A stretch of 64,000 bases of DNA from Candidatus Parcubacteria bacterium (GTDB taxonomy: Bacteria; Patescibacteriota; Patescibacteriia; Patescibacteriales; BM507), in assembly GCA_002869265.1 (NCBI GenBank), contig PKTH01000011.1, forward strand, positions 10,843 through 74,842. Direction: 5' to 3'. A program made the position numbers and the translations under genes. A model generated the notes under the pieces. The model saw only the letters and a list, made by a program, of their open reading frames with translations, was not told the DNA's origin and ran no database searches. This document shows positions 6,701 through 45,301 of this stretch, piece by piece; positions within the stretch are counted from its first letter, which is position 1; each line of letters starts with the position of its first letter.

Positions 6701-8232
6701 AATTGAAAATAGGTGTTACGACTGCTGGAAGTGGAAGTTTCTATGTTGATGATGTAAAAATAAGACCTACTCTAAACTCAAAGCCAGGCACATATGTAGA
6801 TCAAACCTGTAGGCTTTATCCTCAAGATGATTCACTCTCTTGTGAATATATAGAAGACTCAGGAGCCAAGCAAAAAGGTTGGTGGGGTTACTGTTTGGAG
6901 TATGATAGAGCTCCTGGTGACCCGGGCGCTTGTCTGCAGTGGTGGCCAGTGGCGAATATAAAGGGCGATGGCGTTAGCGAGGGCGGCTCAAATTATGAAG
7001 GAAGATATCCGCTATATTACTGTACACAAACTATGGTTGAACCGCTTTATGAATACAGGCATACTTATACATTATACAGGTCTGGTTGTCATACTAATTT
7101 TTTGTGGTGGTCTAGTGGGAATGCTTGTAATGGCCTCGAATGTCCTGATGGTTATATTGAATATAGCCACAAGGGTGACGATTGTAGCGATACTTTTGAT
7201 ATAGAGGAAAGAGTATATTGTTCTTGCCGACCAGATGGCGTGGGATTGGTTGCAGGACTAGAAGACGGTAGTCCTAATAGTTATAGTAACTATCAAGTTT
7301 ATCCATCAAGTGCTAATGATGGCTGGTATATAGCAACCGCAGATCAAACAAACTATAATACCCCAGCAGAAATTACTGCAGCAAATCCAAATTATGAACT
7401 TTTCTGTGGCACGGGTTCAGATCCTTGCTACCTTGAAGGAGAGGTTCGAAAATTAAGATATGGAGACTATATTGATTATTATGCTGGAGATGAAATAATC
7501 CCTGAACCAATGTGTATTAAATTTGCTAAAACCGTTACTGAAACTGGTAAAAATAAATATTGGAGTGGACGTGTTTTTGAAGGATCTGATTTTCAAATAC
7601 CTTGCTATGATGGCTTGATGTCAGCCCCTACTCCGATTTGTACTCAAGACAGCGACTATGCGCCTTTCGGTTCGGCAGTATATCCTGAACCTGTTGAGAA
7701 TCCAGCTCTATGGGATAGTGATGATTATATGACAGGAGTTCAGCCAATGCATTATCAAGACCCAAATACCAATTTAGCAGAACCATATCAAAACAGGATG
7801 GGTAAACTGTATACAGAGGACGACATTAGAAGACTTTTTGCTCAGTCATATGGTGTTTGGGATTGGTCAAGCCCAACAACATTTACTCCGACCAGTACCA
7901 CACCAGGGGAATACATTGTTTCTTATACAGGGCATTGGGAGGCTCCGAAAAATGAATGTACAGGACCTCTAGGACAAAGACCACCAACGCCAACTGACCC
8001 AACTGCTCCACCAATAGATCTGTGTGGGGTGATCCCTCGTGTAGACAGTGATCTTAATGATGCTAACGGAAATGATATTCGAGTTTCGGGAAATACTGGC
8101 GATATTTATGTATCACGAAATGGTTTTGTTGAATTAACCTTTAACACTCTTATGGATAGTGAACAATGGCCATTGGTTTTCTATGCTATAGACTGGGGGG
8201 ATGGTAAATCTACTGTGAAGTCAGGAACGTAA
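703..8232 (+). CDS. Giant exported Cys-rich surface protein (2,509 aa), adhesin-like, function unknown
   Basis: Uninterrupted 7.5-kb ORF with an N-terminal hydrophobic signal/anchor (IFAGALIVLTLFGLLAF). Nine copies of C-x5-G-C-x-x-[YFWIM] (e.g. CSLDNAGCSEYF, CSAKNAGCDEFT, CTASDAGCREYG). Three to four jelly-roll/CBM4_9-like modules open with N-x-x-FE...W. No catalytic motif recognised. Confidence 0.85.
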   Translation: MKNLFFQKRIFAGALIVLTLFGLLAFQKPAFSLEILVRDNETIVGQYEQSAYDKAVQAMKEAADKLVAGLKTAGSKALSSSLRAALNTIAYDTATYLGSGNRGQKPLFITEGWGEYMNNIADNAAGSFIEDLGRNPDFFGQFNLCEPDLAVKFNIGLGLRQQYRPSEPVCTFSEMKENWDEELSRGDFLERFSTSFSPTSNEAMIAVSLHTNIVQDIKGSTEAAEKDREETGGWLDVRNIAGDRVSPPSEAERELEMAIEMQNAQLGAWTGDALVDASNVFLNQLAITAFQTAMRSLADGENTNFTSPYDWASLTDFEAGPASQGVSGTQGKLSGVIQPNFSIRGDYNILSELTMCPDPTKAGPTECVITDKFNQAILNKLTLAEAVRQGYLSGDLVFGFRDGGVEPRYNEGLPYRSMIILRKFRIIPVTWEIIAQHITKNFNRAYSLQELINCYDSNDEFGEPADTLNWCEGMIDPSWVLKAPLNYCGREGPGPNIRFETITGEGDDSKVNISRDDKYCGDEQTCIDENSDGSCNVYGYCTEEKRKWVFGSEACEPKFNTCQTFKKSDGSTISFLENTVDSFSCSLDNAGCSEYFTQADSVDPYDENTNNVFWSTAVGDPHINLDRDAEECSEKNEGCTQLIRTKEGTGVNILPNASFEDTDVSGNLVYWSGLGTLSTEAFDGYSSLELSPGYSSILIPVGPFGYLAAGEEFSLSFYAKDCTDGTIVGFDESIIPGAEIATSSVSEGAQWRRFGVSRYYKPDYFTNDVEIFFDVPAGGTCLIDAIKLERGGASTQYSGYMDEGIIYEKLIPEYLYEDCYQDAFATVPNYELEASRPAECDTYARLCMQEEVGCNMFTSLSDNMQVPAKVTAQDYCPDVCVGYDSYIQTKTSFDSEQEQLFIPNTAESCSAKNAGCDEFTNLDKTEEGGEAREYYKSLKQCIKPGDPAADCGDYYTWEGAEATGFQLKTFSLQRGVGTTSPATASGVYNPFTCNALIYAASSTSPLYNPDCREYYAKTGDVYYLLNSETITCSDNCHPYRRTEDNVVKNNGVNVNSATCSSLPGYSASPTTVGWDGDNNYCVECINGGVWNPQHNACIYMAIPNEGESCTASDAGCREYGGNYGNNVRIILNNDFEGSVQGWDSEGSTNASVSNESLRIGENSLFVQSAPNTISYNVGYRVVEGSAYVIRFLAKSTTDLVDLDIYFENSLASTTHFSEILQVSPGEWGIYEVNLLSLNHRVDFAEKLVIAGSGAGATDFYIDDIKLTNIRDKYYIIKNSWAMPEINGRDICNWDILADSLYPQYSLGCEQYSDNDNKVYSLRDFTKLCQESAVGCEIMIDTQNSDSYEAQLLPEGAITPKVNVPADEYVYAVYSEDKLCESADEGCQRMGKAYTYEGQKLTQDFYIKNNPDKYDTSVCSEFAVGCEEWTTNNGSATFKDPYNQVCEWRQESGGSAWAWLKKKIKRCDMEALPTDPGYGIIDTVSAGETTICFDDSDCSGGRCIVDETDYDCAVSQYKTIGFGGAGNAVKQPMSDADGNWVGVCSVSNSGCSEYIDPVSDFQSNKLFNANFYQDIDSDGYADGWDPVGPSGGSQEILLESNTLYVISVEGDNTLTVTAPIVAPAAVPPSAFRILNNSNEFEPNTSVVTVTSADDDINSVRFYIDGSYTVKVEIADASSHLYGNNSVVSVKKVSIDYQKEDLVDRESCNGTVDFEKGCVLFNERVVDGQGYEDLSWEADETIHDGSGMSPLPGGAGLQNANVLLKVSPDRTCGSWLACSDYVTDDDNNVVCQDIGLCDGLDDNGNCSNFLVEEAVQNSYTLPASIDFSNISGYAKYGLQTPPEEGMEGIYPFGKMEQATELAFMPNGDFEMNADGTMPFGWNSGPELWSENIFKVVDNPVEAEGEGVDRAPSGQSFLQVGGSTAYKVYSEYIDVIGGMEYSLTAYMNTINLPDGAAAIWWDEIDSNGALTFFDRLLVSSEYGNDWEKLTGTVQVEDATTQIKLKIGVTTAGSGSFYVDDVKIRPTLNSKPGTYVDQTCRLYPQDDSLSCEYIEDSGAKQKGWWGYCLEYDRAPGDPGACLQWWPVANIKGDGVSEGGSNYEGRYPLYYCTQTMVEPLYEYRHTYTLYRSGCHTNFLWWSSGNACNGLECPDGYIEYSHKGDDCSDTFDIEERVYCSCRPDGVGLVAGLEDGSPNSYSNYQVYPSSANDGWYIATADQTNYNTPAEITAANPNYELFCGTGSDPCYLEGEVRKLRYGDYIDYYAGDEIIPEPMCIKFAKTVTETGKNKYWSGRVFEGSDFQIPCYDGLMSAPTPICTQDSDYAPFGSAVYPEPVENPALWDSDDYMTGVQPMHYQDPNTNLAEPYQNRMGKLYTEDDIRRLFAQSYGVWDWSSPTTFTPTSTTPGEYIVSYTGHWEAPKNECTGPLGQRPPTPTDPTAPPIDLCGVIPRVDSDLNDANGNDIRVSGNTGDIYVSRNGFVELTFNTLMDSEQWPLVFYAIDWGDGKSTVKSGT

Positions 8233-20202: not shown

Positions 20203-22272
20203 CTATTCTAAGTGAATATCATCTTCAAAGCTGTCCAAACTTTTTTTAAGGTTTGGATTTTTTGTTAGCCCAGGATCATCTTTCATGACCTCTTCAGCTG
20301 ATTTTCTAGCTAAAAGAATTTGTTCATAGTCGAAGAGTGTTGCTACCTTTAGTTCTGGGAATCCTTTCTGCGAGCTGCCAAAAAATTCTCCAGGCCCTCT
20401 TAGTTTAAGGTCTATTTTAGATAATTCAAAGCCATTGTTTGTCTTAAGCATAGCCTCTAGTCTTTTTAACGTATTCTCTGCTTTGCTTTCAGTTGCCAGA
20501 AAGCAGTAAGACTGGTGTTCCCCTCTACCTACTCTTCCTCTGAATTGGTGAAGTTGGGACAAACCGAAACGGTCGGCGCCTTCGATTATTATAATATTTG
20601 CGTTTGGGATGTCGATTCCCACCTCGATTACCGAAGTTGAGATAAGAATATTGGTTTTATTGGAAGAAAAGTTCTCCATAATATGCTCTTTTTCATCATT
20701 TTTCATTTTTCCGTGTAGCATCTCAATTTTTAGATCGGGGAAGATATTTTGAGAAAATCTTTCATATACTTCTTTTACTGATTTCAGCCCCAGTTTATCT
20801 GAAGGATCTATTAGGGGGCACACAACAAAAGATTGTCTTCCTTGATTAATTTGCTCTCTGACAAACGAATGAAGACTGTTTTCTTTTGTCGGGGGGACTA
20901 GCTTGGTGATAATTGGCAGTCTCCCTTTTGGCAGTTCGTTAATAATTGAAATATCTAAATCACCATAAATAGAAAGAGCTAGCGATCTTGGGATGGGGGT
21001 AGCTGTCATGGACAAGAAGTGAGGGCTTTGCTTATCTGGAAGGCCACATTTATCAAGGAGAGCTTTTCTTTGCTCTACTCCAAATCTGTGTTGTTCATCA
21101 ATAACAACCAGGGCTAAGTTCTTAAAAGAAACTGAGTCTTGGAATAGAGAGTGTGTTCCTATTATTAGATCAATCTTGTTTTCAGCAATTTCTTTAAGAA
21201 TTTTTTTCTTCGTATGCTTTTCTCCATTAATAATAAAAAAGTTTCTACTCAGAAGAGCAATGTTTACTTTCTCATTTTTAAATAATTCTAAAAGTGTTTT
21301 ATAGTGTTGTTCAGCAAGTATCTCTGTTGGTGCCATTATTGCAGATTGTTTAGCACCAAGAATAGTGTTGAGAATTGCAATCGAGGCAACAACTGTTTTT
21401 CCGCTACCAACATCTCCTTCTAAGAGTCTAGACATTGGTGAATTCTTTTGGATGTCACCCAATATTTCCCAGGCAGATTTTCTTTGAGAGTCAGTTAGTT
21501 TAAAGGGGAGAGAATTTACAAAGTTCTTTGTTTCTTTTTCTAAAAAATTAATTTTTGGGCTTTTCTTATTCTGAAGAGTCTTTCTTATGGAAATGTATTT
21601 TATTTGCAATAGAAATAATTCATTAAAGGCAAGTTTTTTTTGAGCAGTACTTATATCGTTCTCAGATTTAGGAAAATGGATTTTCTCGATTGCTTTATTT
21701 ATTTGATCCAGTTTAAGCCTCTCGTTTACTTCTTTAGGCAGAGGGTCTTCTAGAAAATCTAGGAATTTTAGAGCAGATTTAATGAGAAATCTTATTTGTT
21801 TTTGGCTAATATTAGAAGTAGAATGGTAGACAGGAACAATACCCTGAGTGTTGATGTTGTCTCCATTTTCGGCCTTATCGTATACAGGAGACTTTATTAC
21901 TAAAGATCCATTATCGTTTTCAACTTTGCCAGTAATTGATACCTTGTCCCCGGGTTTAATATTTTTAGAAATAAATGCTTGATTGAACCATATTACTCTA
22001 ATGGAGTCTTCCTCGTCTCTTAAAATTGCCTCAGTGATGCTAATTTTTTTTCTAAAGCTTTTTTTGGTGTTTATTAGTTCGATGTGTCCGACTACGTTTG
22101 CGCTTTCTCCAGACAATAGGTCCTTAATCTTTTTACTTTTACTGAAGTTTTCGTACCTAAAAGGGAAGAAGCTAATCAAGTCGCTAATAGTTTCAATCCC
22201 CAGTCGTTTTAAACGCTTGGCGGTTGTTTCACCAACCCTATTTAGATGTTTTATATTTGTATCTAGATTCAT
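20203..22272 (-). CDS. recG: ATP-dependent DNA helicase RecG
   Basis: Wedge-domain N-terminus (MNLDTNIKHLNRVGETTAKRLKRLGI), helicase motifs GDVGSGKT and DEQHRFG, and QLHQFRGRVGRG. The start is set at the Met at 22272. The ORF-track extension to 22539 runs through a tandem repeat. Confidence 0.9.
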   Translation of the reverse strand: MNLDTNIKHLNRVGETTAKRLKRLGIETISDLISFFPFRYENFSKSKKIKDLLSGESANVVGHIELINTKKSFRKKISITEAILRDEEDSIRVIWFNQAFISKNIKPGDKVSITGKVENDNGSLVIKSPVYDKAENGDNINTQGIVPVYHSTSNISQKQIRFLIKSALKFLDFLEDPLPKEVNERLKLDQINKAIEKIHFPKSENDISTAQKKLAFNELFLLQIKYISIRKTLQNKKSPKINFLEKETKNFVNSLPFKLTDSQRKSAWEILGDIQKNSPMSRLLEGDVGSGKTVVASIAILNTILGAKQSAIMAPTEILAEQHYKTLLELFKNEKVNIALLSRNFFIINGEKHTKKKILKEIAENKIDLIIGTHSLFQDSVSFKNLALVVIDEQHRFGVEQRKALLDKCGLPDKQSPHFLSMTATPIPRSLALSIYGDLDISIINELPKGRLPIITKLVPPTKENSLHSFVREQINQGRQSFVVCPLIDPSDKLGLKSVKEVYERFSQNIFPDLKIEMLHGKMKNDEKEHIMENFSSNKTNILISTSVIEVGIDIPNANIIIIEGADRFGLSQLHQFRGRVGRGEHQSYCFLATESKAENTLKRLEAMLKTNNGFELSKIDLKLRGPGEFFGSSQKGFPELKVATLFDYEQILLARKSAEEVMKDDPGLTKNPNLKKSLDSFEDDIHLE

Positions 22273-22352
22273 AATAATATTGTAACATGCGTTTCGCAAC
22301 AATTGAAATCCTTCAAAATTAAAAAACAACCCCCGAGGGGCCATTTTTTCAT

Positions 22353-22636
22353 TGTGCTCTCGCCAGGGCCGATGCACCTCTTCGAGGTTTTCGGCATGTC
22401 GCACTAACACGTGCTCCAAATCGTGTTGTTCTGTCCAGGTTCTCAACCCAGCAAGAACCCAATAAAAAACAACCCTAGTCGGGATGTCTTTTCTTGTGCT
22501 CTCGCCAGGGCCGATGCACCTCATCGAGGTTTTCGGCATGTCGCACTAACACGTGCTCCAAATCGTGTTGTTCTGTCCAGGTTCTCAACCCAGCAAGAAC
22601 CCAATAAAAAACAAACCTAGTCGGGATGTCTTTTCT
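22353..22636. repeat. Two tandem 142-bp units (2 mismatches) abutting the 3' end of tRNA-Arg
   Basis: Units at 22353-22494 and 22495-22636 differ at two positions. Each starts (plus strand) with tgtgctctcgccagg, which copies the last 13 nt of the tRNA plus 2 nt of flank. A degenerate partial copy lies at about 22315-22352. Confidence 0.85.
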
Positions 22637-22638
22637 TG

Positions 22639-22710
22639 TGCTCTCGCCAGGAATCGAACCTGGACTTTGGGATCCGCAATCCCACGTTCTATCCGTTGAA
22701 CTACGAGAGC
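22639..22710 (-). tRNA. tRNA-Arg (anticodon GCG)
   Basis: Manual cloverleaf: acceptor GCTCTCG/CGAGAGC, D stem GTTC/GAAC, anticodon stem TGGGA/TCCCA with loop TTGCGGA, T arm CCAGG-TTCGATT-CCTGG, discriminator A. CCA is not encoded. Confidence 0.85.
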
Positions 22711-22751
22711 AATAAAAAAACTAAATTCTAAATATTTAGTTTTAAAGTATA

Positions 22752-23255
22752 TTAAATTTTTAGCAATTTTGACAAGCCTTCCGATAAAGGAATATTCGTT
22801 CTGTCTAAATCTTCATCTAGATATTTTAATAGAAAGTTTCTGATTTGGAGTGGGTTGTTATCAAGAAGGGGGATCGAGAGTCTTTGTTTTGCAGGGTTTT
22901 TAAATTCGAAATAAAGATTTTTTAGTTCCTCATTTGGCTTAAATAACACCGAAAAGTTCTTTAAGTCATCATAATCAAAAACCTTACTACCAATAGCAAC
23001 ACCATCACTAGAAAGAGTCACATTCACGTTATCAGGAGAGTTGCCGTCATGAACAATAGTTATAATAGAAGTGGCAATTATGATAATAGCAAATAGGTAA
23101 TTGCTTGTAAAAATAGCGAAAATTAAAAGAAAAGAAGCAGTAAGCCCAGCAACAATATACCAGGTATTTGATCTGTTGTGCTTTTCAAACTCTGGCACGT
23201 TCCAGGAAATTTGTAATATTTCTTTTTCTTCGTTGTTATCCATTATTGTTGACAT
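22752..23255 (-). CDS. Hypothetical membrane protein (two TM segments plus a soluble C-domain)
   Basis: 167-aa ORF. TM hairpin WYIVAGLTASFLLIFAIF / LFAIIIIATSIITIV. No recognisable motif. Confidence 0.6.
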   Translation of the reverse strand: MSTIMDNNEEKEILQISWNVPEFEKHNRSNTWYIVAGLTASFLLIFAIFTSNYLFAIIIIATSIITIVHDGNSPDNVNVTLSSDGVAIGSKVFDYDDLKNFSVLFKPNEELKNLYFEFKNPAKQRLSIPLLDNNPLQIRNFLLKYLDEDLDRTNIPLSEGLSKLLKI

Positions 23256-23352
23256 TTAGATATTATTCATATAATATTATTATAGCAGATAGATAATTAT
23301 TTTAAAATAAGCAAATGCAAAGAATCTTGCATTTTTATTTTTGAATAAGGAA

Positions 23353-23442
23353 GGAGAGGTGCCTGAGTGGTTGAAAGGGGCACCCTGCTAAGGTGTTAGG
23401 TCTTCACGGGCCTCGAGGGTTCGAATCCCTCTCTCTCCGCCA
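23353..23442 (+). tRNA. tRNA-Ser (anticodon GCU), CCA encoded
   Basis: Acceptor GGAGAGG/TCTCTCC, anticodon loop CTGCTAA, long variable arm, T arm GAGGG-TTCGAAT-CCCTC, 3' GCCA. Confidence 0.9.
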
Positions 23443-23473
23443 TTATCTTTTTGATAAGGAGAAAAATATCCCC

Positions 23474-23560
23474 GGAGGGATGACGGAGCGGTTGAACGTG
23501 ACGGTCTTGAAAACCGTTGAGCCTTAACGGGTTCCCAGGGTTCGAATCCCTGTCCCTCCG
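23474..23560 (+). tRNA. tRNA-Ser (anticodon UGA)
   Basis: Acceptor GGAGGGA/TCCCTCC, anticodon stem ACGGT/ACCGT with loop CTTGAAA, long variable arm, T arm CAGGG-TTCGAAT-CCCTG. A hairpin plus T-run follows at about 23572-23600. Confidence 0.9.
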
Positions 23561-23603
23561 CACAAAACAAGAAGCTGGTATAATGCCAGTTTTTTGTTTT
23601 GAT

Positions 23604-23731
23604 CGAGGGATGCTGTATTAGAACCCCATGGCAAGAATGTAGTCATATAACACGTCAGCGGCTTGGAAGTAGGAATAAATGGATATATTAAAAACATATT
23701 CGATTGAAGCACGTATCCCTGTCCCTCCGCA
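23604..23731 (+). pseudogene. Decayed tandem copy of tRNA-Ser(UGA) (pseudo-tRNA)
   Basis: A perfect 17-nt copy of the tRNA 3' end (atccctgtccctccgca) occurs at 23546-23562 and again at 23715-23731. Weaker matches: 5' acceptor gagggatg (23605-23612), D-loop-like agcggcttggaa (23657-23668), T-loop ttcga (23699-23703). No intact cloverleaf. Confidence 0.4.
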
Positions 23732-23820
23732 ATATAAAAACTGGCAAATAGCAAGTTTTTTATTTGACTAGAGTAAATAAAAAAGGCTATTATTAAATAA
23801 GTTATTAAAAAGAGAAATTT

Positions 23821-25074
23821 ATGTCAAAAATCAGTTTAGCTAGTGAATTAAAAGAAAGGGGTTATATATACCAATACTCCACAGATAATCTTGAGGATAT
23901 TTTTGAAGATAAAAGAGTAATATACTTAGGAGTGGATCCAAACGCTGACTCAATTCATGTCGGCCATTTAGTTACCTATATGCTTGCTTATCACTTGGTT
24001 CAAGCGGGGCACAAGATGATTCTTTTGGTTGGTGGAGCGACAGCCTTGATTGGCGACCCATCTGGGAAAGACGCTGAAAGACCATTTCAAGATGAAAGCG
24101 AGGTGGCGAAGAATGCTTTAGCTCTCACTAAACAAATTGAAAGTCTTCTAAAGATTGATAATATTGAAATGGTTAATAATTTGGACTGGTTTTCAGAAAT
24201 TAACGTGATGGAATTTTTAAGAGAAGTGGGTAAGCACTTTACGGTTAACAATATGATCAGGAAAGAGTCGGTTTCAAAAAGGATTCAGAGTGAAAATGGC
24301 ATTTCATTTACAGAGTTTGCCTATACTCTTTTGCAGGGCTATGATTATTTTCACCTCAATCAAGAAAAAAACTGCGATCTCCAGATTGGAGGTTCGGATC
24401 AGTGGGGGAATATAGTGTCAGGGATAGAGTTAATCAGAAGAAAAAAATCACAAGAGGTTTATGGAATAACGGTTCCTTTGTTACTGGATAAGAACACAGG
24501 AAAGAAGTTTGGTAAAAGTGAAGGTAATGCTATCTGGCTAGACCCAGAGAAGACAAGCCCATATGTTTTTTATCAATTTTGGTTAAATATCGATGATGCC
24601 AATGTTGTTGATTATTTAAAATTGTTTTCCATTTTATCACTTGAGGACATTGGTGCTCTTGAGACGGAAATTAAAAATTATCCTGAGCAAAGAAAAGCAC
24701 AAAAAACCCTAGCTTATGAAGTGACAAAATTTGTCCATGGTGAAAATTTGGCTGAGTCAGTAAAAAAGATTTCTGAAATAATGTTCAGCGGGGAAGGTCT
24801 AGCAGCTCTTAGTGACGAAGAAAAAGAACTTCTCTTGAAAGAAGCTCCTAGTTATAATGTTTCTGAAGATATGTCTCTGGTCGATGTTTTAGTTGAATCT
24901 GGGCTTGCTTCGAGTAAAAGGGAGTCAAGGGAATTTATTGAAAACGGAGCAGTTAGCTTAAATAACGACAAAATTGTTGACACTATGTTTAGATTAAATC
25001 CGGAATTGACCAGAAACTCTTTAGCTATATTAAAGAGAGGCAAGAAAAATAAAATAATCTTAAGTTTCAAATAA
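23821..25074 (+). CDS. tyrS: Tyrosine--tRNA ligase
   Basis: HIGH motif (DSIHVGHL), KMSKS-type motif (KFGKS), GGSDQWGN, and a C-terminal S4-like domain. Confidence 0.95.
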   Translation: MSKISLASELKERGYIYQYSTDNLEDIFEDKRVIYLGVDPNADSIHVGHLVTYMLAYHLVQAGHKMILLVGGATALIGDPSGKDAERPFQDESEVAKNALALTKQIESLLKIDNIEMVNNLDWFSEINVMEFLREVGKHFTVNNMIRKESVSKRIQSENGISFTEFAYTLLQGYDYFHLNQEKNCDLQIGGSDQWGNIVSGIELIRRKKSQEVYGITVPLLLDKNTGKKFGKSEGNAIWLDPEKTSPYVFYQFWLNIDDANVVDYLKLFSILSLEDIGALETEIKNYPEQRKAQKTLAYEVTKFVHGENLAESVKKISEIMFSGEGLAALSDEEKELLLKEAPSYNVSEDMSLVDVLVESGLASSKRESREFIENGAVSLNNDKIVDTMFRLNPELTRNSLAILKRGKKNKIILSFK

Positions 25075-27246: not shown

Positions 27247-28290
27247 ATGGGATTTTTTTCTTCAGTTGATTCTTATCTGGGCGTTGATATTGGTGGCTCC
27301 GGTATAAAAGTGGTGGAACTTAAAAAAGAAGGCAGGGGAGCGAAGCTGGTTTCTTATGGTTTTTCAGAAAACTCAAAAATCAAACCAGGGTTAATGGAAA
27401 ATACTTCGTATGCCGCTCAACTTCTAAAGAAGGTTTGTAAGGATGCTGGCATAAAAAACAAGGCGGCCGTTGCAGCTCTGCCTACTTATGCTGTGTTTTC
27501 TTCTATCCTAAATTTATCAAATGTTACAGAAAAGGACATGGCGTCAGCTGTCCACTGGGAGGCAAAGAAGGTTATCCCCTTGCCGTTAGAGGACATGATT
27601 CTTGATTGGAAGACAATTGATGAAAAAGATGAGAAAGATAAAGACAAGGGTAATATGAAAGTTCTTCTTACCGGGGCTCCTAAGGCTTTAGTAAAAAGAT
27701 ATGTCGATATTTTTAAAGAAGCACAAATGAACTTGATTAGTCTTGAGACAGAGACTTTTTCCCTTGTGCGCTCACTTATGGGAAACGATAAATCAACTGT
27801 CATGATTGTAGAAATGGGGGATGGCACAACAGACATAACGATAGCAGATAACGGTATCCCTTCTTTTAGTAGAAGTGTTGATGTTGGAGGAGGTAAAATA
27901 ACACAAGACATTAGTGAAAAAGGCTCAATGGAATCTGAGATAGCAGAACAATTCAAATACGACCTTGGAATTAGTGCTTTAGGTTCAGGAGAAGTTTCTA
28001 TACCGAAGTTGATTGAAGATAATATTGGACCAATTGTAAATGAAATTAAATACGCTATAAATCTTTATCAAACCAAAGACAATAAGAAAGTAGAAAAAAT
28101 TATTTTGTCAGGTGGGGCCGCTCTCTTGGTTAACTTTTCTGGTTATCTATCAAAAGTATTAGATATAAAAGTTATTCTGGGTGATCCCTGGGATAAAATA
28201 TCATATCCTGACGAGCTTAGACCATTGATGGATGAAATAGGTCCAAAATTGGCTGTTTCAGCTGGCCTAGCCTTAAGAGGAATTTATTAA
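27247..28290 (+). CDS. pilM: Type IV pilus assembly protein PilM (actin-like ATPase fold)
   Basis: N-terminus LGVDIGGSGIKVVELK, the later motifs DMGDGTTDI-like (EMGDGTTDITI) and ILSGGAALL, and its position at the head of the T4P operon. Confidence 0.85.
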   Translation: MGFFSSVDSYLGVDIGGSGIKVVELKKEGRGAKLVSYGFSENSKIKPGLMENTSYAAQLLKKVCKDAGIKNKAAVAALPTYAVFSSILNLSNVTEKDMASAVHWEAKKVIPLPLEDMILDWKTIDEKDEKDKDKGNMKVLLTGAPKALVKRYVDIFKEAQMNLISLETETFSLVRSLMGNDKSTVMIVEMGDGTTDITIADNGIPSFSRSVDVGGGKITQDISEKGSMESEIAEQFKYDLGISALGSGEVSIPKLIEDNIGPIVNEIKYAINLYQTKDNKKVEKIILSGGAALLVNFSGYLSKVLDIKVILGDPWDKISYPDELRPLMDEIGPKLAVSAGLALRGIY

Positions 28291-28295
28291 TTTAT

Positions 28296-29060
28296 ATGTT
28301 TGGAATACAAGGAGAAAAAAATAAAAATAACGATTCACCCAACAAGGAGGGGAAAGTCGATAATAAAAAAATCATCTCAGAATATGATGAAACTTTGAGC
28401 ACAGAACAGAATGAAAGAAATGGCGGAGTTAGTAATAAACTAGATGCTCTTAAGGAAAAACTTGGTCTTCATTCCTCAGCCACGGGGGAGTCAGGGATAA
28501 AAACAAATCTTATAGATACTGATGATGTTGCAACCTTTATAGACTGGAAATCAAGCTCTAGTATTTTTATAAGTTATTTTTTAGTTCTTTTAATAATTAT
28601 TAGTGGGGGGATGGCATATCTAACGTTCTTAGAGGGAGAAAAAGAAAAAAAGGCTACAAGCTACGAAGAAAGAATCTTGGCCATCAAAGCTAATATCTCG
28701 AGCGAAGAGCAAAAGGCTGAAGAGGTCGACAGGCTTCAAAAAAAGATGATTGCCTTTGAGACTATTCTAGATAACCACATTTATTGGACAAACTTTTTTG
28801 ACTATATTGAGGATAACACCTTAGCTCAGGTTTCTTATCAACAATTTTCTGGAGAGACAGACGGAGAGTATAGCCTTCTTGCCAAGGCAGAGAATTCTTT
28901 TTTTACGGCAGGGGAGCAACTCAAGAAATTCAAAGAAGATGAACTGACCGTTGCGGCAGATGCAAGTCAACTGAGTTTATCTTCTAGAGAAGGAAATACT
29001 TTTGTTAATTTTATTTTTAGCTTAAAGGTAGACCCAAAGATTTTTTACAATAAAGAGTAA
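28296..29060 (+). CDS. PilN-like bitopic pilus assembly protein
   Basis: 254 aa with a single central TM (IFISYFLVLLIIISGGMAYLTF) and a coiled-coil. Lies directly after pilM. Assigned by position and topology. Confidence 0.5.
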   Translation: MFGIQGEKNKNNDSPNKEGKVDNKKIISEYDETLSTEQNERNGGVSNKLDALKEKLGLHSSATGESGIKTNLIDTDDVATFIDWKSSSSIFISYFLVLLIIISGGMAYLTFLEGEKEKKATSYEERILAIKANISSEEQKAEEVDRLQKKMIAFETILDNHIYWTNFFDYIEDNTLAQVSYQQFSGETDGEYSLLAKAENSFFTAGEQLKKFKEDELTVAADASQLSLSSREGNTFVNFIFSLKVDPKIFYNKE

Positions 29061-29062
29061 AT

Positions 29063-29698
29063 ATGTCTGACGCTTTTAAAAATTTAAATATCAGTAAGGG
29101 GAAGAGGGCCTTATCATTAATAATTTACAAGTACTCGAATTTGTTAGCAATTTTTTTATTGTTAATTATTTTATTAATTAGTTTTCAGCTAATTATTAAG
29201 CCAAAATACGACAAGATGAAAAACACCTCAGTTGAAATTGAAAAAAGAAAAACCGAGGAAATAGATAAACTGGAAACATATCTAGCTCAACTAAAATCTT
29301 TTAATAAATCTTATAATGAAGTTAGTGACAATGATAAAGAAAGAATGAGCAGGATTATTCCAGGAAACGGTGATTATGAGGACTTAATGGCCGAATTTGA
29401 AAACATTGTTAATAAAAGAAATCTTATTTTAAGGTCTGTGGAGATAAAAAAGACAGGGGCTGCCGCTAGCAATAAAAGAGTGAAGGTGGCCTCGAATGAA
29501 GAAGGCGCTACCTCACTCCCTGAAGGAATAAAAGAGATTATTTTGTCTTTAAGTATTGAAGGGGCCGATTATGATACATTTAAAAGGCTTATGGAAGATT
29601 TTGAAAAGAATCTTCGCATTACAGATGTTAAAAAAATAGATTTTATTGACAAGGGGAGAGTGAGTTTAGATGTTTCGGTTTATTATTATGATTTATAG
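29063..29698 (+). CDS. PilO-like bitopic pilus assembly protein
   Basis: 211 aa with an N-terminal TM, a coiled-coil and a C-terminal alpha/beta domain. Third gene of the pilM operon. Confidence 0.5.
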   Translation: MSDAFKNLNISKGKRALSLIIYKYSNLLAIFLLLIILLISFQLIIKPKYDKMKNTSVEIEKRKTEEIDKLETYLAQLKSFNKSYNEVSDNDKERMSRIIPGNGDYEDLMAEFENIVNKRNLILRSVEIKKTGAAASNKRVKVASNEEGATSLPEGIKEIILSLSIEGADYDTFKRLMEDFEKNLRITDVKKIDFIDKGRVSLDVSVYYYDL

Positions 29699-29701
29699 CT
29701 T

Positions 29702-30019
29702 ATGATAATACAGAAAATAAACAAGAAAAAACTATACATGAATATTGGGGCCCTGGTTCTGATTTTTGGGTTGATTGCTTATTTGCTTTTAAGCACTTTT
29801 TCGTCCCCTAAAAAGAAGTCTAGTGGAAGCGGTCAGACAGTTGATTTTACTAAAGAAGTTGTTATTGAAAAGAAATATAAAAGTTTAAAAAAGATCAATT
29901 CAGGAATTTTTGAAGATCCAAGATATAAAGAACTAAAAGATATGAGCAGAAGTTTTGATCCTGACATAGATACTGGGAATAAAAATCCATTTGAAGTTAA
30001 AGAAAAAAATGAAGAATAA
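29702..30019 (+). CDS. Small membrane-anchored protein, possibly PilP-like
   Basis: 105 aa with an N-terminal TM. The C-terminal FEDPRYKEL...GNKNPF recalls the G-x-x-NPF ends of PilP-like proteins. Weak assignment. Confidence 0.4.
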   Translation: MIIQKINKKKLYMNIGALVLIFGLIAYLLLSTFSSPKKKSSGSGQTVDFTKEVVIEKKYKSLKKINSGIFEDPRYKELKDMSRSFDPDIDTGNKNPFEVKEKNEE

Positions 30020-31745
30020 AGATATATTAGACATATTGGCTGAGAAAGAGATCTTGGGGGTAAACGAAGTTGTAGCGCTAAGAGAAGAGGCTGAAAAGGA
30101 TAAGATCTTAATAGAAGATTTATTAGAACGAAAAAAAATAATAGATGCTGAGGGTATAAGCAAACTTCAGGCTGAGGTTTTTGGCTTTCCTTATGCAAAT
30201 CTTATGGATAAGGATTTGCCGGAAGAAGCTTTGCAGATTATTCCGAGTGAAGTTGCCCAGAATTATCAAATTATTTGTTTTTCAAAAGAAGACAAGAAGA
30301 TAAAAGTCGGTATAGTTGACCCCAATAATTTCAAGGCAATAGAGGCAGTAGATTTTTTGTCAAAAAGAGGAGGATTACTGGCCGAGTATTTTTTAATTTC
30401 TAGGAAAAGTTTTAACTTTGCTTTTAAAAAATACCAAATTTTGTCCAAAGAGTTAGCCTCTGCGCTTGAAACAAAAGAAGAAGACGAAAAAGTACAAGAT
30501 AAAAAGAAAGAAGACGAGGGAGATCTGGAAGAAGTTACTAAAAGCGCTCCAGTGGCCAAAATAGTTTCAGTCATTATTAGACATGCTGTTGAAGGGAAAG
30601 CTTCTGATATACACATTGAGCCCCTGGAAAAGGAGACCAGGATTAGATATAGGATTGATGGTATTTTGCACACCTCGCTGGTTCTACCAAAAAACATTCA
30701 TTCAGCTATTGTTGCCAGAATAAAAGTTATGGCAAATCTAAAACTAGATGAAACAAGAACACCCCAGGATGGAAGAATTAGAATGCCAATAGATGATAAA
30801 GAATATGATTTTCGTGTTTCTATACTGCCTTTAACGGGCTCAGAAAAGGTTGTGATGAGAATTTTGGACACTAATAAGGGCGCTCCTGCTTTAGCCGACC
30901 TTGGGTTTCAGGGACATGCTCTAAAAGTTATTGAGAGAGGAATAAAATTAACAGAAGGGCTCTTGCTTGTAACTGGACCCACTGGTTCTGGTAAATCGAC
31001 AACCCTTTTCTCTGTTCTTAGTAAACTAAATAAAGAAGGTATAAACATATCCACTCTCGAAGATCCTGTAGAGTATCATTTAACCGGGGCTAATCAATCT
31101 CAGATTAGGCCGGAAGTGGGGTATACCTTCTCAGCTGGGCTTAGATCTTTTTTAAGACAAGACCCAGATATTATTATGGTTGGTGAGATTCGTGACAAGG
31201 AAACTGCTGAGCTTTCTATTCATGCTGCGATGACTGGTCATTTTGTTTTATCGACTGTTCACACTATCAGTGCTGTTGGGGCGCTTACTAGATTGATAGA
31301 TATTGGAGTGGAGCCATTTCTGGTCGGGACAACTATGCGCGTAATAATATCTCAGAGATTGGCCAGAAAGATCTGTGAAAATTGTAAGGAGGTTGATAAA
31401 GTGGGAAGTGAAGTGATAGGGAAAATAATAGAAGAACTAAAAGGAGTTCCTAAAAATTATATAGAAGAAATAATTCCTGATTTTGATTTAGATAAGGTTT
31501 CTATGTATAAGGGGATGGGTTGTGTAAAATGTGGCAATACTGGGTATAAAGGCAGGGTTGCGATATCAGAGGTTATCGAAGTAAACAAAAAAATGCAAAA
31601 ACAAATACTAGATGGTAAAAAACATTTTTCAACAGATGAGATCAGGGAACTTCAAAAGTATATTACAATAAACGAAGATGGTTTAATTAAAATAATACAG
31701 GGCAAAACTACTCTCGAAGAGGTGTTGAGAGTGACCCAAAATTAA
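30009..31745 (+). CDS. pilB: Type IV pilus extension ATPase PilB (GspE family)
   Basis: GspE N-domain, Walker A GPTGSGKSTT, Asp box LEDPVE, Walker B DPDIIMVGEIRD, His box GHFVLSTVHT and a tetra-Cys cluster (CENC...CVKC). ATG 30009 is preferred over the TTG at 29991. Confidence 0.9.
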   Translation: MKNKDILDILAEKEILGVNEVVALREEAEKDKILIEDLLERKKIIDAEGISKLQAEVFGFPYANLMDKDLPEEALQIIPSEVAQNYQIICFSKEDKKIKVGIVDPNNFKAIEAVDFLSKRGGLLAEYFLISRKSFNFAFKKYQILSKELASALETKEEDEKVQDKKKEDEGDLEEVTKSAPVAKIVSVIIRHAVEGKASDIHIEPLEKETRIRYRIDGILHTSLVLPKNIHSAIVARIKVMANLKLDETRTPQDGRIRMPIDDKEYDFRVSILPLTGSEKVVMRILDTNKGAPALADLGFQGHALKVIERGIKLTEGLLLVTGPTGSGKSTTLFSVLSKLNKEGINISTLEDPVEYHLTGANQSQIRPEVGYTFSAGLRSFLRQDPDIIMVGEIRDKETAELSIHAAMTGHFVLSTVHTISAVGALTRLIDIGVEPFLVGTTMRVIISQRLARKICENCKEVDKVGSEVIGKIIEELKGVPKNYIEEIIPDFDLDKVSMYKGMGCVKCGNTGYKGRVAISEVIEVNKKMQKQILDGKKHFSTDEIRELQKYITINEDGLIKIIQGKTTLEEVLRVTQN

Positions 31746-31752
31746 TAATCAT

Positions 31753-32127
31753 ATGTCAACAAAAAAGAAAATTTTAATTGTGGAGGATGACGAGTTTTTA
31801 TTGAGTATGTATTCAACCAAATTTGAAATAGAAGGCTATGAGGTGGTTATAGCCGCTAATGGTGAAGAGGGGGTTGAAAAATCTAGAAATTCAAATCCGG
31901 ATATAATTCTCCTAGACATAATGCTTCCGCAAATGGATGGTTTTGATGTTTTGAAAAAAATAAAAGCAAGCAGAGAAACAAACTCAATCCCCGTAATATT
32001 ATTAACCAATCTTAGTCAAAAACAAGATGTTGAACAGGGCTTATCTCTAGGGGCTGATGATTATTTAGTTAAAGCACATTTTATGCCGTCAGAGGTTGTT
32101 GATAAAATTAAAAGACTTATAAAATAA
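31753..32127 (+). CDS. Single-domain response regulator (CheY/PilH-like receiver)
   Basis: 124 aa with acidic pocket VEDDE, phospho-acceptor context IILLDIMLPQMDG, conserved T (LLTNLS) and K (DYLVKAHF). Confidence 0.85.
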   Translation: MSTKKKILIVEDDEFLLSMYSTKFEIEGYEVVIAANGEEGVEKSRNSNPDIILLDIMLPQMDGFDVLKKIKASRETNSIPVILLTNLSQKQDVEQGLSLGADDYLVKAHFMPSEVVDKIKRLIK

Positions 32128-32131
32128 TAAA

Positions 32132-33163
32132 ATGGAAGTAGTTTCAATATTTTTAAATAGAATATTATTAGCGGGACAAAAGAAAAGGGCTACATCTCTT
32201 CATCTGAGTTCTGATAGCCTGCCTATCGTTCGTGTAAATAACCAGCTTTTGGAGGTGGCAGGTGAGCCAGTTGTTGAACATGATTTATTGATGGGGATTA
32301 TTAAATCTATTTTGATGGAAGATGAATTAAATGTCTTGGGAGAAAAGAAAGAAATAACAATTGCCAAAGACCTAGCAGGAGATCTTCGCTTTAGAATAAA
32401 TATTTTTAAACAGAACAACTCATACTCTATTTCTTTTTATTATGTTTCTAAAAAAATAAAAACAATTAAAGAATTAGAACTTCCAGAAGTTTTGTCGGGG
32501 ATAGTCAAACAAAAGACAGGTCTTTTAGTGGTTGCCGGACCGCAGGGTTCAGGAAGAACAGCAACCAGTAGCGCTTTGGTTGAAGAGGTAAACAGTGTAG
32601 GTGGCCACATAGTAACAATCGAAGAGCCCATAGATAATATTTTTGTCAGAAACAAAGCATTAATAGATCAAAGACAAGTAGGTCGTGATGTAAAGACGGC
32701 AGATGATGCAATAAAATATTGTTTAATGGATGACGTTGATTTTGTCTATATTGGGGAAATTAGAAAGCATTTTGAGCTGGCTTTTCCCTTGGCGGCTGAA
32801 CTGGCTTCTGGGAACGCTTTTGTTTTGTTGGAACTTAATGCTACAAGCTCGGTGCAAGTTATTGAAAAACTCACAACTGCTCTAGAGTCAAAGTATAACG
32901 AAGAAGCTGCTCGATTTATGTTAGCTGATGTTTTATCAGCAATCATTACTCAAAAGTCATTTTTCAAAAAACCCACAGGGAAAGTGATTGCTAGGGAGCT
33001 GATGATTAATAATGCTGCCATTCAATCACTGATAAGAGAGGGTAAGCATTTTCAAATAGAAAGTGTTATCCAAACTTCTCGCAATGAAGGTATGATAAGC
33101 ATGGCCAAATCGATTGAAGACCTTGTATCAAGGGGAGTAATAAACGAAAATGATGTTTACTAA
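32132..33163 (+). CDS. PilT-like hexameric ATPase homologue with degenerate catalytic motifs
   Basis: PilT-length (343 aa) and colinear with PilT. Walker A reads GPQGSGRTAT (Arg where Lys is expected). The His box reads GNAFVLLELNAT instead of GHLV..TLHT. Asp box is EEPID and Walker B is DVDFVYIGEIRK. Confidence 0.8.
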   Translation: MEVVSIFLNRILLAGQKKRATSLHLSSDSLPIVRVNNQLLEVAGEPVVEHDLLMGIIKSILMEDELNVLGEKKEITIAKDLAGDLRFRINIFKQNNSYSISFYYVSKKIKTIKELELPEVLSGIVKQKTGLLVVAGPQGSGRTATSSALVEEVNSVGGHIVTIEEPIDNIFVRNKALIDQRQVGRDVKTADDAIKYCLMDDVDFVYIGEIRKHFELAFPLAAELASGNAFVLLELNATSSVQVIEKLTTALESKYNEEAARFMLADVLSAIITQKSFFKKPTGKVIARELMINNAAIQSLIREGKHFQIESVIQTSRNEGMISMAKSIEDLVSRGVINENDVY

Positions 33164-33165
33164 AT

Positions 33166-34368
33166 ATGTCATTATATAAATACAAAGTATTAGATCCGTC
33201 AGGTAAGGCCCTTTCTGGCCTAGTTGAAGCGAATTCAGAGGATTCAGCTGCCGCCACTTTACGTGAAAAAGGCTATTCTATAATTTCTCTATATTTAGAG
33301 TCCGCCGGGGATAAAGCTAAGGGCTCTTTTGTTATCGACAGAGTTACTCCGAAAGATATGGTTATATTTTCTCGGCAGTTATCTGTTTTGATTTCGGCCA
33401 ATGTTGCTATAGTGCAGGCCCTCCGAATACTTGTAGACCAAACAGAAAATTTGAAGTTAAAAATGGTTCTCTCTGAGGTTGTTGACGAAATAGACGGAGG
33501 TTCAACTCTCTCAATTTCTTTTAGTAAAAGACCCAAGATTTTTGATAGCTTTTTTGTGAATATTGTAAAATCAGGTGAAAGTTCGGGTAAGCTAGATGAG
33601 GTTCTAGATTATCTAGCAGATGAAATGGAAAAAGAGTATGACATGCTTAGTAAGATAAAGGGGGCAATGATATACCCAGCTTTTGTCTTAGTGGGGTTAG
33701 TTGGTGTGGGGATAGTGATGATGGTATTTGTGGTCCCGAAACTTACAGCAGTTTTAGAAGAGAGTGGAATGGAGCTTCCTTTTGCCACTAAAGTTCTAAT
33801 TTTAGTGTCCGGTTTGCTACAATCTTATTGGTTGTTAGTGATTATTGGTCTTGTCGGTTTCTACTTTGGTTTTAAATATATTATAAACACAAAAGTTGGG
33901 AAGGTGGTTTTTGATAACGTAGTTCTACGTTTACCAATATTTGGTAAACTTTTTCAATTAATTTATCTCACCAGGTTTACAAGATCCTTCAGTACACTTT
34001 TGGTTGGGGGAGTGACAATTACTCACGGTCTAAAAATTGTCGAAGATGTAGTTACAAATTCAGTCTACAAGGATCTTATTCATAAAACGGTTATTAGTAT
34101 TGAAGATGGGCACTCTATTTCAGAAGAATTTACTAAAAGTAAAAGTATTCCTAAAATGGTTAGTCAAATGATGAATATTGGAGAAAAAACAGGTAGGCTT
34201 GATATGATTTTGAAAAAAATTACAGAGTTTTATTCGAGAGAAATAGATAATATTGTAGCTAATCTAATGACCCTGATGGAACCAATTATTATGGTTATTA
34301 TGGGAGTAGCTGTGGGATTGATGGTGGCTGCTATTATTCTCCCGATGTATCAAATGGCTGGGGTATAG
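33166..34368 (+). CDS. pilC: Type IV pilus platform protein PilC (GspF family)
   Basis: 400 aa with two GspF repeats and three TM segments. Typical N-terminus (YKYKVLDPSGKALSGLVEANSEDSAAATLREKGY). Confidence 0.9.
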   Translation: MSLYKYKVLDPSGKALSGLVEANSEDSAAATLREKGYSIISLYLESAGDKAKGSFVIDRVTPKDMVIFSRQLSVLISANVAIVQALRILVDQTENLKLKMVLSEVVDEIDGGSTLSISFSKRPKIFDSFFVNIVKSGESSGKLDEVLDYLADEMEKEYDMLSKIKGAMIYPAFVLVGLVGVGIVMMVFVVPKLTAVLEESGMELPFATKVLILVSGLLQSYWLLVIIGLVGFYFGFKYIINTKVGKVVFDNVVLRLPIFGKLFQLIYLTRFTRSFSTLLVGGVTITHGLKIVEDVVTNSVYKDLIHKTVISIEDGHSISEEFTKSKSIPKMVSQMMNIGEKTGRLDMILKKITEFYSREIDNIVANLMTLMEPIIMVIMGVAVGLMVAAIILPMYQMAGV

Positions 34369-44494: not shown

Positions 44495-45301
44495 ATGATT
44501 TGTTATTTTTACTCAACAATTTTTATTCTCGGAACATTGATTGGCAGTTTTATTAACTGTCTTGTTTGGCGTCTCCATAAAAACGAAAGTATTTTGGGGA
44601 GGTCTTATTGTCCTAAGTGTCGAAAGCAAATCTACTGGTATGAAAATATTCCAATTCTTTCATATATATTCTTGAAAGCAAAATGTAGTGGTTGTGGGAA
44701 GAAGATTAGTATTCAATATCCTTTAGTAGAACTTATTACAGGCATCTTATTTGCTCTGTCTTTTTATTTAAATTTAGTTAACTTGGGCGCGATTGATCTT
44801 TATGGCATTGTTTTTTCGTTTGATTTTGAGTTTTTAATTAGAGTTATTAGAGATTTGTTTTTAATTTCTGTAATGATAATTATCTTTTTATACGACCTCC
44901 GTTGGTATTTAATTTTGGACAGAATAACTCTACCTGCGATTTTTCTTATTTTTGCATTAAACATTTTTCTAGGCTTTGACCTAAAAAGTCTTTTACTCGG
45001 CGTTCTAGTTGGGGGAGGCTTCTTCTTGTTCCAATTCTTAGTTTCTAGAGGGAAATGGATTGGAGGAGGGGATATTAGGCTGGGGGCGCTTATGGGAGCT
45101 ATGTTTTCTTGGCCAATGATTTTATTGGCCTTATTCCTTTCATACATAATTGGTTCACTTGTCTCAGTTCCTTTGGTCATTTTTGGAAAAAAAGAATGGG
45201 GCTCTCAAATACCCTTCGGAGTCTTTCTGACCAGCGCCTCTGTGGTCGTCGTTTTTTGGGGCACAGAAATTCTTAGGTGGTATCTATCTCTAATCTATTA
45301 A
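44495..45301 (+). CDS. pilD: Prepilin peptidase / N-methyltransferase PilD (A24 family)
   Basis: N-terminal Cys pairs (CPKC...CSGCG), polytopic membrane core, and catalytic Asp contexts (LYDLRWYLILD; GGGDIRLGALMG). Confidence 0.9.
   Translation: MICYFYSTIFILGTLIGSFINCLVWRLHKNESILGRSYCPKCRKQIYWYENIPILSYIFLKAKCSGCGKKISIQYPLVELITGILFALSFYLNLVNLGAIDLYGIVFSFDFEFLIRVIRDLFLISVMIIIFLYDLRWYLILDRITLPAIFLIFALNIFLGFDLKSLLLGVLVGGGFFLFQFLVSRGKWIGGGDIRLGALMGAMFSWPMILLALFLSYIIGSLVSVPLVIFGKKEWGSQIPFGVFLTSASVVVVFWGTEILRWYLSLIY

Follow-up and report, generated by a model that had tools for sequence, protein, structure and literature searches.

What can a 142-bp repeat be that lies directly behind a transfer RNA (tRNA) gene and restores the last nucleotides of that gene at each of its boundaries? 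This question is posed by a 64,000-nucleotide stretch of DNA (hereafter the window; positions 10,843 to 74,842 of contig PKTH01000011.1) from a metagenome-assembled genome of Candidatus Parcubacteria, in which two such units follow tRNA-Arg(GCG). The first-pass annotation of the locus had left three options, namely a remnant attachment (att) scar amplified in tandem, a tRNA-derived miniature repeat, or a small structured RNA co-transcribed with the tRNA. As judged from comparative sequence analysis, the unit belongs to a family of small, lineage-specific and previously unnoticed repeats of one Parcubacteria group. We place about even confidence in the reading that it is a conserved tRNA-derived foldback module, transcribed within a tRNA operon, whose copy number shifts by unequal recombination. 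Most likely it would be transcribed with the tRNA as a structured RNA, and would not be the remnant of a phage or genomic island. No published description of such units was found in the searchable literature, and repeats of this kind are not mentioned in a paper (PMC13011429) on group I introns within the tRNA genes of Patescibacteria.

The gene for tRNA-Arg(GCG) lies on the minus strand at 22639-22710 (ARAGORN and the Rfam tRNA model, 70.5 bits, which together place its boundaries at 22638/22639-22710) and encodes no CCA. Directly behind it, Tandem Repeats Finder detected a repeat at 22346-22651, with a period of 142, 2.1 copies, 98% matches and a score of 589. Self-BLAST and a hidden Markov model (HMM) of the short unit type described below resolved this region into two 142-nt units on the minus strand, unit 1 at 22497-22638 (HMM match with E=1e-42) and unit 2 at 22355-22496. 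They are arranged head-to-tail, with two mismatches over their 142 positions, one in the terminator-like stem (T/G) and one in a hairpin loop (T/A), much as had been described previously, with coordinates shifted in phase by 1-2 nt. Both end in CCTGGCGAGAGCA, i.e. in the last 13 nt of tRNA-Arg, as the first-pass annotation had recognised, and the identity extends 3 nt (CAA) into the trailer; the direct repeat of the tRNA 3' end, 13 nt long (16 with the trailer), occurs three times. The two nucleotide differences between the units argue for at least two genuine copies, whose actual number could be higher. BLAST and HMM searches for other copies within the window gave only a relative behind tRNA-Ser(TGA).

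Read in the orientation of the tRNA, the unit follows a four-part plan, in which a terminator-like hairpin with a U-run is succeeded by an inverted copy of the last 27-29 nt of the tRNA, an interior and the exact tRNA 3' end. Unit 1 opens with CAAG... and runs through the terminator-like hairpin, the inverted copy and the interior hairpins to its terminal CCTGGCGAGAGCA. The opening hairpin, identified from sequence and fold, is weak (CCC-GACUA-GG with an A-run and a U-run; minus strand, 22606-22635, and 22464-22493 in unit 2) and is homologous to a terminator, CCCGACTAGGG, of a related lineage (G, see below). It resembles the downstream flank GGCCCCTCGGGGGTTGTTTTTT (22321-22342), with which it has the stretch GGGTTGTTTTTTA in common. 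This likeness had been pointed out before, but not the larger palindrome to which it belongs and whose centre is the terminator.

The second part, revealed by local alignments, is an inverted copy of the last 29 nt of tRNA-Arg (minus strand, 22575-22603, and 22433-22461 in unit 2), which reads TGGGTTCTTGCTGGGTTGAGAACCTGGAC where the perfect complement would be TGTGCTCTCGCCAGGAATCGAACCTGGAC. The internal "T-arm-like stretch" of the first-pass annotation belongs here: it is real, but antisense, forming part of this reverse-complement copy. The inverted copy spans the acceptor 3' strand and the entire T arm in all nine units compared (alignment p about 0.003-0.013), and in it the complement of the T-loop is always altered to TGAGAA. 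The interior of the short-type units behind tRNA-Arg comprises two hairpins on the minus strand, hairpin 1 (GCAC-GUGUUA-GUGC; 22543-22556, and 22401-22414 in unit 2) and hairpin 2 (GCCGA-AA-ACCUC-GAU-GAGGU-GCA-UCGGC; 22510-22537, and 22368-22395 in unit 2); the hairpins named earlier are indeed present in the folds. The unit closes with the exact copy of the last 13 nt of the tRNA, i.e. the T-stem 3' strand, the acceptor 3' strand and the discriminator (minus strand, 22497-22509, and 22355-22367 in unit 2). In minimum-energy folds, GUUCUUGCUGGG is predicted to pair with CCUGGCGAGAGC, forming a 12-bp acceptor/T-stem-like helix, and the consensus fold of the long-type units, whose interior consists of an A-rich stretch and a GGGG-tetraloop-CCCC hairpin, contains an equivalent closing stem.

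The junction between inverted copy and interior falls on D-loop-like sequence (GGACAGAAC vs GGATAGAAC), and the junctions to this sequence show the microhomology GGAC/GGAT. Local alignment also detects a weak direct similarity of the unit to the D-loop and anticodon region. The direct 3'-end copy begins in or beside the T-loop, with an identity of 13, 17 or 19-22 nt, depending on the case. Taken together, the exact 3' copy, the inverted 27-29-nt copy and the degenerate tRNA body support descent of the unit from the adjacent tRNA, which agrees with the earlier suggestion of a tRNA-derived miniature repeat. A tandem duplication of the whole tRNA gene is ruled out by the 5' part of the unit, which corresponds to the T arm in reverse complement and not to the acceptor 5' strand or the D arm. 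A retroelement-style primer-binding site is likewise ruled out, as beyond the tRNA end the inverted copy is complementary to the genomic trailer (CA...) and not to CCA. The repeat does not encode a protein, since 142 is not a multiple of 3 and the sole long open reading frame (ORF) is a false extension of recG (see below).

A second instance in the window, overlooked by the first-pass annotation, lies on the plus strand behind tRNA-Ser(TGA) (23474-23562; ARAGORN and Rfam). It is a single long-type unit of 169 nt (23563-23731; long-type HMM, E=4.5e-26). The last 17 nt of this unit, ATCCCTGTCCCTCCGCA (23715-23731), repeat the 3' end of tRNA-Ser(TGA), and a second terminator-like hairpin separates it from the following gene, tyrS. 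Syntenic loci were then gathered using RecG and a small neighbouring protein, complemented by one metagenome pattern scan. Homologous units are present in eight Parcubacteria lineages of one clade, designated W (the window), B (locus L001), C (L006 and L020), D (L008), E (L010), F (L022-L027), G (L028) and H (L029), so the unit is conserved and recurrent and not a peculiarity of one site. Its length ranges from 142 to 186 bp, and its position is always directly 3' of tRNA-Arg(GCG), tRNA-Ser(TGA) or tRNA-Ser(GCT). The family HMMs found no match elsewhere in the window, in the rest of the loci or in eight more distant relatives. Where Arg and Ser units occur in the same genome, their interior modules are near-identical and their tRNA-derived arms are tRNA-specific, which implies inter-locus exchange bounded by T-loop-like sequences. 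Long-type units, for example those of L022 (3598-3612) and L020 (2470-2482), have a conserved GUGAUGA(A) motif behind the inverted copy. This motif looks like a half-site of a box C/kink-turn, and the predicted fold pairs it with GUUGC further downstream; both may be coincidence.

A scan of a genome collection, for which the small protein encoded beside the repeat served as query, gave distant relatives only (40-54% identity), none of them with members of the family. In three of these relatives (L012, L014 and L015), analogous copies of a tRNA 3' end lie within 100-330 nt of a tRNA. These partial copies (L012 4111-4215; L014 2890-3200, minus strand; L015 4120-4215) lie 90-200 nt downstream of tRNA-Arg or tRNA-Ser(GCT) and carry GC-rich hairpin inserts inside T-loop-like sequence, unrelated in sequence to the window family; L014 additionally has an inverted tRNA-end copy and a third degenerate copy.

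Several further features were noticed at these loci. Locus L001 (5068-5180) retains a 21-nt 5' fragment of the native-type tRNA-Arg (GCTTTCGTAGTTCAACGGATA) with its conserved upstream flank, followed after 19 nt by a complete, different tRNA-Arg(GCG), with the acceptor GTCCTCG as in lineage H and a short flanking inverted repeat; this arrangement looks like a tRNA gene replacement. Directly after the tRNA 3'-end copy, L022 (3787-3820) and L028 (about 3780-3813) carry a GC-rich element of approximately 34 nt, CCCCAAGAGCACTTTGTCGCTYYGCTCGGGCGYA, whose core CACTTTGTCGCTTCGCTCGGGCG occurs three times in the L001 spacer (about 5490-5770) and which represents a separate small repeat. Yet another short repeat follows tRNA-Ser(GCT) in lineages B and H (L001 4161-4335 and L029 720-794, both minus strand); it combines a CGTGCTAGCACG hairpin with a degenerate T-loop/3'-end-like tail (GTTCGAATCCCTTTGTGTTCGCCA) and is present in two copies in L001. 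Comparison of the window (22272-23821) with L006 (2370-4001) showed that the segment tRNA-Arg/small gene/tRNA-Ser(GCT)/tRNA-Ser(TGA) is inverted relative to recG and tyrS, and that the break regions are the unit-bearing 3' flanks of tRNA genes, which have inverted homologous modules in common.

Has the unit been conserved as a structure? Lineage F holds an orthologue of the short-type unit of the window, located distal to a long-type unit. Despite saturation of the four-fold degenerate sites of the adjacent gene (31% identity between W and F), the unit interiors are 69% identical, vs 50 +/- 3% in shuffled sequences. When the 26 proposed base pairs were examined in the W/F alignment, 97% of the cells could pair, and six pairs had changed on both sides with pairing kept; in controls with the partners slid, pairing fell to 30-47% and at most one pair had changed on both sides. 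Three of the four base pairs of hairpin 1 have changed on both sides in the lineage F orthologue and still pair, while hairpin 2 shows two compensatory pairs and one A-U to G.U change. The tRNA-sense strand outfolds the antisense strand in 10 of 11 units (median z about -3 vs -1.5).

The inverted copies point in the same direction. In the window, all four substitutions that face the acceptor and T-stem 3' strands of the tRNA are C-to-T or A-to-G, which keeps G.U pairs on the sense strand; the fifth mismatch faces the trailer and not the tRNA itself. The same bias is seen in the Arg-type inverted copies of lineages C and F, Ser-type copies being less clean. Moreover, lineages C and E differ by C/T at one site of the tRNA-Ser acceptor, and their inverted copies differ correspondingly by G/A. 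In lineage F, Ser(GCT) units are situated between two tRNA genes of the same strand, and there the terminator-like hairpin is missing. At the in silico level only, these compensatory changes, the strand-specific folding, the above-neutral conservation and the inter-tRNA position support the earlier proposal that the unit is a small structured RNA transcribed together with the tRNA.

Copy number differs by whole units between assemblies of the same species. The Ser(GCT) unit occurs once in L022 and twice in L023 and L024, which are assemblies of one species, while the Arg unit is absent from L006 and present in at least 1.5 copies in L020, a contig that ends inside the array and is otherwise 99% identical. 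With regard to the latter pair, unequal recombination yields a pattern like that of occupied and empty integration sites. A further explanation is that the window array itself is an assembly artefact, i.e. a mis-assembled loop through a repeat that the genome contains once or not at all. The data are a short-read metagenome assembly; arrays of this type coincide with an N-gap (L006), a contig start (L008) and a contig end (L020) in relatives; and a second public contig of identical sequence (L021) probably stems from the same data. However, the two window units differ at two positions, the same architecture recurs in independent samples and species, and even a single unit would carry the tRNA 3'-end copy, leaving the finding intact, so that we consider an artefact highly improbable. 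In L006 an N-run (3611-3709) lies inside the tRNA-Ser(TGA) unit array, making the copy number there uncertain; the near-identical L020 shows one full and one partial unit.

The transcription, processing and function of the module are inferred, and the following scenario would fit the foldback reading. During replication, a template switch around the tRNA terminator hairpin would have copied the last 27-29 nt of the tRNA in inverted orientation, after which synthesis would have returned to the tRNA body and proceeded forward up to its 3' end. The tRNA would thereby have come to be followed by the terminator, the inverted copy, a degenerate tRNA body and the exact 3' end, in this order. Such a fold-back origin is suggested by the D-loop-like junction and the weak similarity to the anticodon region. 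As the alignments show in part, the module appears to have outlasted by far the survival expected of neutral DNA; compensatory changes keep its internal hairpins paired, and both of its arms stay matched to the living tRNA. Expression would proceed from the tRNA promoter, either by read-through of the weak terminator or with the unit as an inter-tRNA spacer. In the resulting RNA, the sense-strand inverted copy and the 3' end of the unit could form the 12-bp acceptor/T-stem-like helix with G.U pairs, closing a domain of conserved hairpins, so that each unit would be an RNA domain mimicking a tRNA end. This domain may be excised by tRNA-processing enzymes or help to define the 3' end of the tRNA transcript; a mimic cut by such enzymes, or else a 3'-end-defining structure, is the mechanism we regard as most likely. 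Unequal recombination, possible because each unit ends in the same sequence as the tRNA, or slippage could add or remove whole units, consistent with the observed polymorphism, and the two near-identical window copies would represent a recent expansion.

A bolder version of this scenario, which seems to us quite unlikely, is that candidate-phyla-radiation bacteria have a new class of small RNAs that mimic tRNA ends, and that the units are the genes for them. The acceptor/T-stem-like closing helix would allow RNase P and RNase Z to release the unit from the tRNA precursor, and CCA might be added. The product could be a decoy, a buffer or a regulator, directed at enzymes or toxins with specificity for the acceptor end of the tRNA, and tandem copy number would set its dosage.

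A number of observations weigh against a transcribed and maintained module. The key covariation comes from two lineages only (the window and F), and the RNAalifold covariation term is small for the long-type units. Compensatory changes and G.T tolerance would equally fit a hairpin of single-stranded DNA, and the C-to-T bias could originate from deamination of the non-template strand. Several Ser-type inverted copies carry G-to-A changes that break pairing, and the 3' copy has decayed in the distal unit of lineage F and in lineage G, so not all parts are always maintained. The terminator-like hairpin that opens each window unit would limit read-through, and the copy numbers rest on short-read assemblies, in which collapse or mis-estimation may occur.

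Some of these points lend weight to a neutral origin, according to which fold-back or slippage errors at the palindromic tRNA terminator produced a pseudo-tRNA fragment devoid of RNA function. Its persistence and copy number would be due to recombination between repeats, and its arms would be kept matched by quasi-palindrome correction and gene conversion, not by selection. The inverted-plus-direct architecture with microhomology junctions is indeed what template switching produces, the 3' and inverted copies have decayed in some lineages, and the interior of the window Ser unit, compared with its counterparts, is barely above shuffled identity (0.54-0.55 vs 0.51-0.52). A recurrent mutational process is also suggested by the analogous copies of distant Patescibacteria (L012, L014 and L015), which have GC-rich inserts and look unrelated. 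Nevertheless, the interior hairpins are not copies of the tRNA, so that conversion from it cannot maintain them, and they are 69% identical with five compensatory pairs despite saturated synonymous sites. Further, the TGAGAA loop replacement is common to all three tRNA types. Genomes of this group are generally streamlined (roughly of the 1-Mb class) and would be expected to lose 140-370 bp of useless DNA. On balance, we view neutrality as possible but rather unlikely.

The other explanation to be weighed is integration, either of a cargo-less mini-element consisting of little more than a phage-type attachment site (attP) or of a tRNA-targeting element after deletion, of which only the fused ends are left. 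A tyrosine recombinase encoded elsewhere would insert the mini-element at the T-loop of the tRNA, and repeated insertion would build an array while regenerating the tRNA 3' end. Crossover in the T-loop is a described sublocation of integrases in tRNA genes, and in seven independent cases (13, 17, 19-22 nt, L012 and L014) the direct repeat begins in or beside that loop. Arrays exist whose copy number varies within species; in lineage F the tRNA-proximal unit has a perfect 3' copy and the distal one a decayed copy, as expected of new arrivals at the tRNA; and within a genome the Arg and Ser units have near-identical interiors, as though a single element had used several tRNAs. Yet a Pfam search of 30 mid-size ORFs from the window gave no integrase, transposase or other recombinase, none is adjacent to the units in any locus, and no larger element was seen with matching unit halves at its bounds. 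BLAST gave no match in phage or plasmid records, and five pattern scans of IMG/VR returned one irrelevant match inside a high-GC coding region. A 142-bp circle would be too small for a normal attP complex, a tRNA-specific inverted copy is foreign to attP sites and is left unexplained, and T-loop entry into different tRNAs would yield chimeric tRNAs unless a matching 3' end were carried. Finally, the family looks vertically inherited across its eight lineages. We therefore judge integration unlikely: of the att scar proposed in the first-pass annotation, the T-loop start of the identity stands, whereas integrase, cargo and a phage or plasmid counterpart are missing.

A promoter-like site (TTGTCA, 18 nt, TATACT; minus strand, 22746-22775), proposed by a consensus scan alone, lies upstream of tRNA-Arg and is likely the start of the putative transcript of the tRNA and its units. 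Behind the last unit, a terminator-type hairpin (GGCCCC-UCG-GGGG followed by UUGUUUUUU; minus strand, 22321-22342), identified from sequence and fold and not listed by the consensus terminator scan, is probably the native end of the tRNA-Arg transcript; the plain order tRNA-Arg, terminator, recG is present in L014, L016 and L017. In the window, unit 2 is followed by this strong terminator, promoter-like hexamers and the recG start codon (ATG at 22272).

The true recG frame (689 aa) occupies 20203-22272 of the minus strand, since its closest homologues (P0003-P0009, 689 aa) align from the ATG at 22272. The ORF itself extends over 20203-22539 (778 aa) and is annotated at this length in the public record (P0001); a look-up of this 778-aa RecG found nothing on record. 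The alignments confirm that the 89 additional codons (22273-22539) are a false extension made by the repeat, as the first-pass annotation had proposed. The nearest RecG relatives of the source genome are 62-65% identical. Besides recG, the neighbours of the locus are a gene for a 167-aa membrane-like protein and tyrS. A T-box or other riboswitch upstream of tyrS or recG is not indicated, as no model matched and the downstream gene varies by species. With Rfam 15, no family matched the units at gathering score. In the window and four related loci, only tRNAs and chance matches appeared at gathering score and at E<=10 or E<=1; those to microRNA-precursor models reflect no more than the long hairpin into which the tRNA 3' end folds together with the terminator and the inverted copy. 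A cloverleaf was not detected in the units by ARAGORN or the Rfam tRNA model, which call only true tRNAs, even at E<=10. Elsewhere in the window, and unrelated to the repeat, we noted an ORF of 2509 aa (703-8232, plus strand), a set of genes resembling type IV pilus/type II secretion systems (27247-34368, plus strand; PilM, T2SSE, T2SSF and a prepilin peptidase, the last at 44495-45301).

If the reading favoured here is correct, some of the smallest bacterial genomes would keep and recombine a dedicated tRNA-derived structured module beside particular tRNAs. It would represent a new kind of component of tRNA operons and a natural case in which both arms of an RNA helix are made by reusing a tRNA 3' end. 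In practical terms, such repeats break assemblies (in three relatives), create false gene starts (recG) and can be mistaken for integration scars by island finders based on tRNA fragments. The family may also serve as a clean test case for separating integrase footprints from template-switch duplications at tRNA genes.

How does the unit relate to known systems? It does not have the defining features of any of the families with which it was compared. Like the att repeats of integrative elements, it creates a direct repeat of the tRNA 3' end that starts in or beside the T-loop, leaves the tRNA intact and forms tandem arrays at one tRNA. Unlike them, it measures 142-186 bp, contains neither integrase nor cargo, carries an additional inverted copy of the tRNA end and is conserved in eight lineages with compensatory changes, with no phage or plasmid counterpart found. 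Miniature inverted-repeat transposable elements and repetitive extragenic palindromes are likewise small, non-coding, hairpin-rich and multi-copy, with inverted-repeat ends. However, the present units were found by HMM only 3' of three tRNA genes, their inverted ends vary with the host tRNA, and no target-site duplication or transposase was found for them. In the attP(+) site of CTX-phi and the attC sites of integrons, inverted and direct copies of the target lie approximately 80-120 nt apart and fold into a target-like duplex, with G.T-tolerant stems and tandem arrays; here, by contrast, there is no evidence for a single-stranded DNA stage, a Xer- or IntI-type partner or a replication function.

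Fold-back template-switch rearrangements (quasi-palindrome extension; DUP-TRP/INV-DUP) resemble the unit in the inverted copy beside a hairpin, the direct re-copy and the microhomology, although they represent a mutational mechanism and not a maintained element, whereas in this case the product has been conserved and diversified. Among RNAs, the 3' external transcribed spacers of tRNAs, such as that of E. coli leuZ, which acts as a small RNA sponge, are also trailer-derived and may have a role of their own; there is no sequence relation, and in the present case the trailer is tRNA-derived and tandem. Finally, tRNA-like domains (the tRNA-like domain of transfer-messenger RNA, mascRNA, bacterial YrlA and viral tRNA-like structures) are similar in their acceptor/T-stem stack, predicted here as 7+5 bp, in the use of the tRNA's own 3' strand and in the large insert that replaces the rest of the tRNA. 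The unit differs from them in having no Rfam match and no T-loop in the mimic, and in a helix that in several cases passes the discriminator.

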